From Saprospiraceae bacterium (GTDB lineage Bacteria; Bacteroidota; Bacteroidia; Chitinophagales; Saprospiraceae): a stretch of 57,992 nt of DNA. The DNA is taken from positions 1 to 57,992 of the forward strand of contig JANQRV010000384.1 of assembly GCA_028284395.1 (NCBI GenBank), given 5' to 3'. Positions within the stretch are counted from its first letter, which is position 1; each line of letters begins with the position of its first letter. A program made the translations under genes and the position numbers. Below the pieces are notes generated by a model that saw nothing but the letters and a program-made list of their open reading frames with translations, was not told the origin of the DNA and searched no databases. Of this stretch, positions 18,086 through 19,983 are shown in pieces.

Positions 18086-19099
18086 GTGTTCACAAAAAAA
18101 GAATTGGATAACCATATCGATGCCGGGTGGATTCGGGTGCAAAAGCATCCAAAAAACGACCTGTTCATATACAATTATACCCAGGAGGCACAGTACGAAG
18201 GAATTTGGGATCACATTACCCTGAGTTGCAGAGGGCTCATTTTGGATAAAAACAACAAAATCGTGGCTCGTCCACTACCAAAATTCTTCAACCTTGGCGA
18301 ACGGGACGATCAGTTGATTCCCAATGAAGCCTTTGAAGTCTTCGAGAAACTGGATGGATCTTTGGGCATCCTTTATTGGATCGGAGATCAGCCGTTTATA
18401 GCAACCCGAGGTTCCTTTCAAAGCGAACAATCGGCAGTAGCTAACGAAATCTTATATGCCCAATATCGCCACCTGATTCCTGCCTTGGATCGATCGAAGA
18501 CCTATCTTTTTGAGATCATTTACCCAGGCAATCGAATCGTTGTCGATTATGGCAACCGAACAGACATCATTCTATTGGCCATCATCGATACTGCCACCGG
18601 CGTTGAAGCCCCTTTGAACAGCATGGGGTTTCCGGTCGTTCGAAAATACAATGGGGTCAAGGACATCCATACGCTGAAAGATCGGGAGGAAGTCAACCGT
18701 GAGGGGTTTGTCATTCGTTTCGCCAGCGGACTCCGATACAAAGTCAAATTCACGGAATACATTCGCATCCATCGCCTTGTTACACAGGTTTCCAACGTTA
18801 CGATCTGGGAAAACCTAAAGGCGGGAGATGCCCTCCATGAATTGATCGAAAAAGTGCCGGATGAATTCTATGAGTGGGTAAAACAAACCCGAGCGGAGTT
18901 GTTGACCGAATTTGCCAATATTGAACACATCTGCAAACAGGAATTCAAAATTCTTGCTACCCGTAAGGATACCGCTCTCTATTTTCAGGAGTGTCAGTTC
19001 CCCGGAGTACTATTCAACATGCTTGATGGCAAAAACTACGATGAGATCATCTGGAAGGCAATTCGCCCCAAGCATTCCAAACCATTCTCAACTCCTTAA
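18086..19099 (+). CDS. ATP-dependent RNA ligase, Rnl1 family (homologue of phage T4 RNA ligase 1, a tRNA-repair ligase)
   Basis: Nucleotidyltransferase motif I KxDG (VFEKLDGSLGILY), motif IV (REGFVIRF) and motif V (RYKVKFTEY). Other segments align, from memory, with T4 gp63: CRGLILD...RPLPKFFNLGE versus ECRGIMFE...RPMEKFFNLNE, GSFQSEQSAVAN versus GSIKSEQALMAN, and NRIVVDY versus NRIVLAY. Confidence 0.8.
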   Translation: MFTKKELDNHIDAGWIRVQKHPKNDLFIYNYTQEAQYEGIWDHITLSCRGLILDKNNKIVARPLPKFFNLGERDDQLIPNEAFEVFEKLDGSLGILYWIGDQPFIATRGSFQSEQSAVANEILYAQYRHLIPALDRSKTYLFEIIYPGNRIVVDYGNRTDIILLAIIDTATGVEAPLNSMGFPVVRKYNGVKDIHTLKDREEVNREGFVIRFASGLRYKVKFTEYIRIHRLVTQVSNVTIWENLKAGDALHELIEKVPDEFYEWVKQTRAELLTEFANIEHICKQEFKILATRKDTALYFQECQFPGVLFNMLDGKNYDEIIWKAIRPKHSKPFSTP

Positions 19100-19110
19100 C
19101 CAAAACAACC

Positions 19111-19983
19111 ATGAAAAGAGTAATCATCATGAAAGGGCTTCCGGGAAGCGGTAAGTCTACCTACGCAAAAAACCTAGTCAAAGAAAACCCCAATGCCTAT
19201 AAGCGCATCAACCGCGATGACCTTCGAGCCATGTTTGATGGTGGCCATTTTAGTCGTGGCAATGAAAAGTTCGTACGGCAAATTCGGGATGTTTTGATCA
19301 CCAAGGCCCTGGAGGCAGGAAAACACGTCATCATCGATGATCTGAATCTATCCGTTAGAAATGAAAACCGCATTCGACAGCTGGTCCAAGAGTTCAACAC
19401 CAAACATGCTGACTCAGTTAGGGTCGAAACAAAAGCAATGAATACCCCGGTGGAAGTTTGTATCGAAAGGGACGCCAAACGTGAAAAACCGGTAGGAGCC
19501 ACCGTCATCCACAAACTAAACCGACAATTCTTCGACCCTTTTTCTGATTACGTCCAACAAGACCCTCAATTACCACCAGCCATTATTTGTGATTTGGACG
19601 GCACCCTGGCGCTGCTGAATGGTCGAAATCCATTTGTAGCAGAAAACTGTGATCAGGACGAATTGAATCGACCCGTGGCCAATTTGGTAAAGCTCAAGGC
19701 AGCTTCTGGTGCTAAGATTTTACTGCTATCCGGTCGCCTGGATACCTATCGTACCAAAACGGAGCAGTGGCTGGCCAGACACCAGATCCCCTACGATTTG
19801 TTGAAAATGAGGCCCGAAGGCGACACCCGCAAAGACGCTACGGTCAAAGAGGAGTTCTATACCGACTTCATCAAGGGTAAGTACCATATCGATTTTGTTT
19901 TAGACGACAGAAACCAGGTCGTAGACCTGTGGCGGAACAAATTGCGCTTACCCTGCTTTCAGGTCTTTTATGGGGATTTCTGA
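19111..19983 (+). CDS. Bifunctional polynucleotide 5'-kinase/3'-phosphatase (T4 Pnkp-like)
   Basis: N-terminal P-loop kinase (MKGLPGSGKSTYAKNL; T4 has GCPGSGKSTWA). C-terminal HAD-type phosphatase with DxDGT (AIICDLDGTLA; T4 has AVIFDVDGTLA). The C-terminal EGDTRKDATVKEEFY...VFYGDF parallels T4 QGDTRKDDVVKEEIF...VASGDF. It starts 12 bp downstream of the ligase gene. Confidence 0.85.
   Translation: MKRVIIMKGLPGSGKSTYAKNLVKENPNAYKRINRDDLRAMFDGGHFSRGNEKFVRQIRDVLITKALEAGKHVIIDDLNLSVRNENRIRQLVQEFNTKHADSVRVETKAMNTPVEVCIERDAKREKPVGATVIHKLNRQFFDPFSDYVQQDPQLPPAIICDLDGTLALLNGRNPFVAENCDQDELNRPVANLVKLKAASGAKILLLSGRLDTYRTKTEQWLARHQIPYDLLKMRPEGDTRKDATVKEEFYTDFIKGKYHIDFVLDDRNQVVDLWRNKLRLPCFQVFYGDF

Follow-up and report, generated by a model that had tools for sequence, protein, structure and literature searches.

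Two adjacent genes in the chromosome of a Saprospiraceae bacterium encode proteins resembling the tRNA repair enzymes of phage T4, and the question is whether they are a phage counter-defence, a self-sufficient repair pair or part of a larger bacterial system. In T4, RNA ligase 1 (Rnl1, gp63) and polynucleotide kinase-phosphatase (Pnkp, PseT) repair tRNA and thereby counter the PrrC anticodon nuclease. We analysed a stretch of 57,992 nucleotides (58 kb) of contig JANQRV010000384.1, referred to here as the window. At a probability of about 75%, we consider the ligase and the kinase-phosphatase to supply the core enzymes of a chromosomal operon of Bacteroidota for ligase-based RNA repair, which would work by healing and sealing RNA ends. 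The operon consists, in this order, of a YrlA-like tRNA-mimic RNA, a Band-7/SPFH protein, an Rnl1-type ligase and a Pnkp1-type kinase-phosphatase, and its function is most likely to mend RNA (probably tRNA) that ribotoxins have cut. The features of the locus are as follows.

16329..16368, + strand: strong intrinsic-terminator-like hairpin (stem of 18 bp, then a T run) that closes the nqrA-F operon upstream and delimits the repair unit on its 5' side
16567..16636, + strand: core of the YrlA-like tRNA-mimic RNA (Rfam match, covariation, covariance model)
16925..18022, + strand: Band-7/SPFH ('slipin') protein, 365 aa (Pfam Band_7, 120 bits)
18086..19099, + strand: Rnl1-clade ATP-dependent RNA ligase, 337 aa, GTG start (Pfam, PHROG and T4 Rnl1 matches)
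19111..19983, + strand: T4-type/Pnkp1-type 5'-kinase and 3'-phosphatase, 290 aa (Pfam, Pnkp1 and T4 Pnkp matches)

The ligase and the kinase-phosphatase

Both open reading frames lie on the forward strand with a gap of 11 nt, at the positions given in the original prediction, and all the motifs quoted there are present, including the C-terminal GDF of the second protein. The proposed homology to gp63 and PseT also holds far beyond chance, with E 3e-16 for the ligase against the T4 Rnl1 chains and E 1e-39 for the kinase-phosphatase against T4 Pnkp.

The GTG start of the ligase is supported by eight homologues that begin at the same 'MF' position. The protein displays motif I EKLDGS (aa 87-92, nt 18344-18361) with lysine K88, motif III FEIIYP (nt 18506-18526), motif IV EGFVIRF (aa 206-212, nt 18701-18721) and motif V YKVKF (aa 218-222, nt 18737-18751); residues K88, D90, G91, E143, E206, G207, K219 and K221 show no variation across 132 homologues. 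T4 residues R54, K75, F77 and K119, which we take from the mutagenesis of T4 Rnl1 to be the Rnl1-specific essential residues outside the classic motifs, align with R49, K66, F68 and R108 of the window ligase. Position 108 thus carries arginine in place of the T4 lysine, and this arginine is nearly invariant across the family.

Profile comparisons place the ligase in Pfam RNA_lig_T4_1 (62 bits, cut-off 28.3) and, over its full length, in PHROG 562, the gp63 family (E 5e-68, aa 12-333 aligned). Against NCBIfam TIGR02308, the T4 RnlA equivalog model, it reaches 71.7 bits, far under the cut-off of 242.25; by this model the protein is predicted to be a member of the T4 RnlA family and not an equivalog. 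NCBI names its close relatives 'T4 RnlA family RNA ligase'. In sequence and fold the ligase is nearer to T4 Rnl1 and Trl1-LIG than to the Rnl2, Rnl3, Rnl5, Pnkp-ligase and DNA-ligase clades. Judged by its sequence, it is an Rnl1-clade ATP-dependent RNA ligase with an intact active site.

The nucleotidyltransferase domain (approximately aa 24-235) is about 26% identical to that of T4 Rnl1, and the C-terminal domain (approximately aa 236-337) is shorter than its T4 counterpart, the domain that confers tRNA specificity (about 100 against 120 aa), and weakly alignable with it. A shallow profile ends its alignment at T4 residue 256, and a diverse profile renders window residues 23-322 collinear with T4 residues 31-354. 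Compared alone, the C-terminal domain scores 16.3 against T4, and shuffled sequences score at most 13.9, which makes the homology marginal. The structure model computed from 8 sequences was mediocre (pLDDT 73.7) and was superseded by one computed from 132 sequences (pLDDT 96), in which aa 223-325 are predicted to be entirely helical.

The kinase-phosphatase combines the P-loop GLPGSGKST (aa 9-17, nt 19135-19161), the HAD motif DLDGTL (aa 161-166, nt 19591-19608) and a C-terminal YGDF (nt 19969-19980). It matches Pfam HAD_PNKP (PF25109) at 156.8 bits (cut-off 27.6), AAA_33 at 72.5 bits and phrog_505 at E 2e-82. End-to-end alignments with solved structures show that the bacterial Pnkp1 of the Pnkp1-Rnl-Hen1 complex (4xrp_A, E 1.6e-64) is closer to it than T4 PseT (1ltq_A). 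The conserved elements are GxGKS, RDD.R, DxDGT, NGR, SGR, GDTRKD and DDR. The segments GSGKST (aa 12-17), NRDDLR (aa 34-39) and AKRE (aa 122-125) align with the kinase residues of T4 and Pnkp1, which are K15, S16, D35, R38 and R126 in the T4 enzyme; DLDGT, NGR, SGR, GDTRKD and LDDR align with the phosphatase residues of both proteins, those of T4 being D165, D167, R176, R213, D254 and D277/D278. The second protein is thus predicted to be a bifunctional end-healing enzyme of the T4 or Pnkp1 type with both active sites intact. The profile searches therefore agree with the original assignment of an Rnl1-clade ligase and a T4-type Pnkp, encoded by adjacent and co-oriented genes.

The tRNA-like RNA and the Band-7 gene

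Non-coding conservation between the window and its closest relative (L084) extends from about 16441 to about 16800. The Rfam YrlA model matches the RNA region at 35 bits (gathering score 69; local E 7e-6), and matches of the same kind are found in all five independent SPFH loci, that is, loci bearing the same Band-7 family elsewhere. RNAalifold yields a four-helix junction with compensatory changes at 14 of its 19 pairs, and the covariance model built in this analysis scores the window RNA at 69.9 bits. Across 86 distinct matches, all 19 pairs covary and the paired cells make up 92.6%; this proportion is 63% in shuffled controls and at most 53% when the sequences are slid. Folding of the single sequence gives a z-score of -0.05, so the RNA cannot be recognised from its folding energy alone, and covariation constitutes its evidence. 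ARAGORN calls no tRNA in the region. The parts of the RNA are an outer, anticodon-like stem, a T-arm GGUUCGAAUCC, a closed acceptor-like hairpin and a D-arm GUAGCUCAGUGGCAGAGC, and it appears to be a circularly permuted form of the YrlA type with a closed acceptor hairpin.

The Band-7 gene is the first protein gene of the unit and ends 63 nt upstream of the ligase on the same strand. Of the 80 ligase loci compared among Bacteroidota species, 9 have a homologue of this gene (44-60% identity) on the upstream side of the ligase, and in all nine the YrlA-like RNA precedes the Band-7 gene by 360-500 nt. A Band-7 gene also adjoins the ligase in the closest relative; a tenth match (L003, 29% identity) lies downstream of the ligase. 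The five independent loci share the order WYL regulator, RNA and Band-7, followed by variable genes that include RtcB and Macro; in one of them (L087) RtcB occupies the position equivalent to that of the Rnl1-type ligase. Taken together, the window, the five independent loci and the nine ligase loci carry the predicted RNA approximately 290-810 nt upstream of the Band-7 gene in 15 of 15 cases.

These associations bear on whether the two enzymes form a self-sufficient T4-like tRNA repair pair, with the Band-7 gene and the tRNA-like RNA as mere neighbours that at most share a transcript. T4 Rnl1 and Pnkp are enough for tRNA repair in vitro. In half of the loci (40 of 80) the ligase and Pnkp occur without other recurrent partners in between, the Band-7 gene is upstream in only nine, and in three of the five independent Band-7 loci no RNA ligase gene is nearby. 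However, the ligase-adjoining Band-7 gene is always on the same strand and always preceded by the RNA, the independent loci supply RtcB or Macro, other enzymes of RNA ends, and 28 of the 80 ligase loci, many of them lacking Band-7, contain a YrlA-like RNA that the covariance model scores at 30 bits or more. We therefore regard an isolated pair as unlikely and favour the four-part operon. The heal-and-seal role given by the original prediction remains the best reading, but the picture of an isolated dedicated module has to be extended by the Band-7 gene and the YrlA-like RNA directly upstream.

Family size, neighbourhoods and chromosomal setting

To our knowledge, Rnl1-type ligases have been viewed as a feature of only T4-like phages, fungi and some few viruses, and the original prediction likewise called them rare outside T4-like phages. 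The family counts correct this view: when clustered at 50% identity, with E<=1e-3, the ligase family comprises 11,316 clusters. At 90% identity there are more than 7,900, and many members bear the name 'T4 RnlA family RNA ligase'. The nearest relatives of the window ligase are almost all from Bacteroidota. A Pnkp1 homologue follows the ligase on the same strand in 75 of the 80 Bacteroidota loci, and phrog_8238, a phage family that fuses the kinase to the ligase, matches both window proteins; the conserved pairing and the fusion suggest a functional linkage of the two enzymes. Comparative evidence thus indicates that Rnl1-type ligases belong to the standard accessory repair enzymes of Bacteroidota and almost always come with a Pnkp1-type partner. 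Literature searches returned no bacterial Rnl1-clade ligase characterised for activity, substrate or expression. The window locus alone is one of thousands, and it is the wider class that merits experimental attention.

Recurrent neighbours in the related loci are RlaP, Hen1 together with Rnl (4xrp_C, E 1e-106; 4xru_B, E 1e-121), TROVE/Ro and a WYL regulator, the last being found in 51 of the 80 loci and in the closest relative. A tblastn search of the entire 58-kb window found no Hen1, Rnl, RlaP, WYL, TROVE or TatD. The same ligase occurs accompanied by Pnkp alone, by RlaP or by Hen1-Rnl-Pnkp1, or else downstream of the RNA and Band-7. This variety suggests a natural experiment, and the window offers a compact, clonable version that has four parts and lacks a regulator. 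The closest relative retains only a deletion remnant of the Pnkp gene, so the module can be dispensed with.

The Hen1-bearing neighbourhoods raise the question of whether the window pair belongs to a 'repair with immunity' system of the Pnkp1-Rnl-Hen1 type, with Hen1 (and Rnl) encoded elsewhere and the repaired RNA 2'-O-methylated. The best solved relative of the kinase-phosphatase is the Pnkp1 of that complex, and both systems pair a ligase gene with pnkp1 as a two-gene unit on the chromosome of a member of Bacteroidota. Twenty-one Flavobacterium-type loci carry the Rnl1-like ligase as an extra gene directly beside Hen1-Rnl-Pnkp1, and Capnocytophaga gingivalis provides a precedent for a hen1 gene distant from the rnl-pnkp1 operon (PMC4411300). 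The partner ligase differs in clade, however: it is Rnl1-type in the window and PNKP_ligase-type in the complex, and we rejected the window ligase as the 'Rnl' of that complex. Within the 58-kb window there is no Hen1. Membership in such a system is considered quite improbable, and the Band-7-associated operon is the reading retained below.

Phage origin was assessed from both the genes and their surroundings. The matches to phage families are strong (phrog_562, E 5e-68; phrog_505, E 2e-82), and the nearest phage ligases, those of Streptomyces phages, are about 41% identical over the full length and are encoded near a PNK gene, among tRNA genes. A remnant of a prophage or mobile element carrying counter-defence genes is nevertheless highly improbable. 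The family is very large, with its closest members almost all in Bacteroidota, and the unit is located between nqrF and S9-peptidase and exosortase genes that are shared with the closest relative. Pfam annotation of nearly all long open reading frames turned up neither phage genes nor genes for an integrase or transposase in the 58 kb, as the original prediction had stated for the surroundings of the pair, and PHROGs searches with the ligase, Pnkp, Band-7 and VWA genes, combined with the Pfam survey, did not add any phage genes; a prophage origin is therefore rejected. ARAGORN finds no tRNA genes and hence no tRNA integration site in the window, GC content is even over the 58 kb with no compositional anomaly, and the remaining genes are chromosomal (Nqr, Sdh, RNase R, SufS/NifU and type IX secretion, T9SS). 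The suggestion of a domesticated phage counter-defence accordingly finds no support, the nearest phage ligases being only as close as the identity given above. A Band-7-like gene near the ligase in the Streptomyces phage Sham has no significant similarity to the window gene; it was rejected as a homologue, and the co-occurrence is treated as coincidence. PADLOC gives no match for the ligase-Pnkp pair or its neighbours. A sigma-70 promoter scan shows no enrichment over shuffled sequences, the sigma-70 consensus being unsuited to Bacteroidota.

Proposed mechanism and known repair systems

The mechanism we propose draws on the biochemistry of the T4 enzymes and Pnkp1 and on the conserved residues. 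A metal-independent ribonuclease, possibly a competitor's ribotoxin, a toxin-antitoxin nuclease or an abortive-infection nuclease, would cut the anticodon loop of a tRNA or another stem-loop RNA and leave a 2',3'-cyclic phosphate and a 5'-OH. The HAD domain would strip the cyclic or 3' phosphate to a 3'-OH, and the P-loop domain would phosphorylate the 5'-OH. The ligase, adenylylated on Lys88, would then transfer AMP to the 5'-phosphate, and attack by the 3'-OH would reseal the RNA. The junction would carry no 2'-O-methylation, since the window encodes no Hen1. For the Band-7 protein and the tRNA-like RNA, a role as scaffold, cofactor or damage sensor is probable. The analysis shows the family assignments, the intact active sites, the recurrent pairing of the two genes, the covariation of the RNA and the non-phage setting; the substrates, the trigger and any such role of Band-7 and the RNA are inferred.

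The same chemistry could act on nucleic-acid ends otherwise, in the repair of DNA breaks with 3'-phosphate and 5'-OH ends or in routine RNA maturation or circularisation. T4 Pnkp accepts DNA as well as RNA, and our search found no ribotoxin or anticodon nuclease, hence no cognate nuclease, within the window. Archaeal Rnl3 is reported to circularise small RNAs (PMC9014305). Yet the neighbours of the family are markers of RNA repair (RlaP, Hen1, TROVE, RtcB and the tRNA-like RNA), and a patchy module that has been lost in a close relative is a poor fit to a housekeeping role; we consider these functions very unlikely and prefer the repair of damaged RNA.

A further, distinctly unlikely extension is that the ligase and Pnkp may also act on the co-encoded, circularly permuted tRNA-like RNA and not only on damaged tRNAs, with Band-7 as the platform holding the RNA and the enzymes. 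Joining of the 5' and 3' ends would then close the anticodon-like loop, and after opening of the acceptor hairpin the product might be a spare or decoy tRNA, or a damage-reporting ligand of the WYL regulator of the relatives. The operon would in that case form a self-contained device for RNA-guided repair or sensing, and not a generic heal-and-seal pair.

Compared with T4, the window pair is bacterial and chromosomal, its two adjacent genes are accompanied by Band-7 and the tRNA-like RNA, and the bacterium is not known to have a PrrC. A module of RNA and Band-7 with an RNA ligase has been predicted before, with RtcB as the ligase: systems of Band-7, b7a-tRNA (or YrlA) and RtcB are attributed to Burroughs and Aravind 2016 in 10.1101/312249. 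The window resembles these systems in that Band-7 adjoins an RNA ligase and a tRNA-like RNA lies upstream, and the one locus of the same Band-7 family with RtcB downstream matches them. Compared with the systems as described there, the differences are that the window ligase is ATP-dependent and Rnl1-type and needs a kinase-phosphatase, whereas RtcB joins 3'-P and 5'-OH ends directly, and that the window RNA appears to follow the YrlA pattern, circularly permuted and with its acceptor hairpin closed. The partnership of Band-7 and a tRNA-mimic RNA with RNA ligases is still a prediction according to the same source.

The Salmonella rsr-yrlBA-rtcBA operon, which is under the control of RtcR (Hughes et al. 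2020, PMC7790460), likewise joins an RNA ligase to a YrlA-type tRNA mimic. Divergent ligand-sensing regulators accompany both systems: WYL in the relatives of the window, the CARF-containing RtcR in Salmonella. The window has no Ro/Rsr, RtcA or RtcB and no regulator gene, and its ligase chemistry differs.

Fungal Trl1 (LIG-KIN-CPD) is a single fused polypeptide, unlike the separate genes of the window. It uses a 2H cyclic phosphodiesterase in place of the HAD phosphatase, and it needs a 2'-phosphate at the junction.

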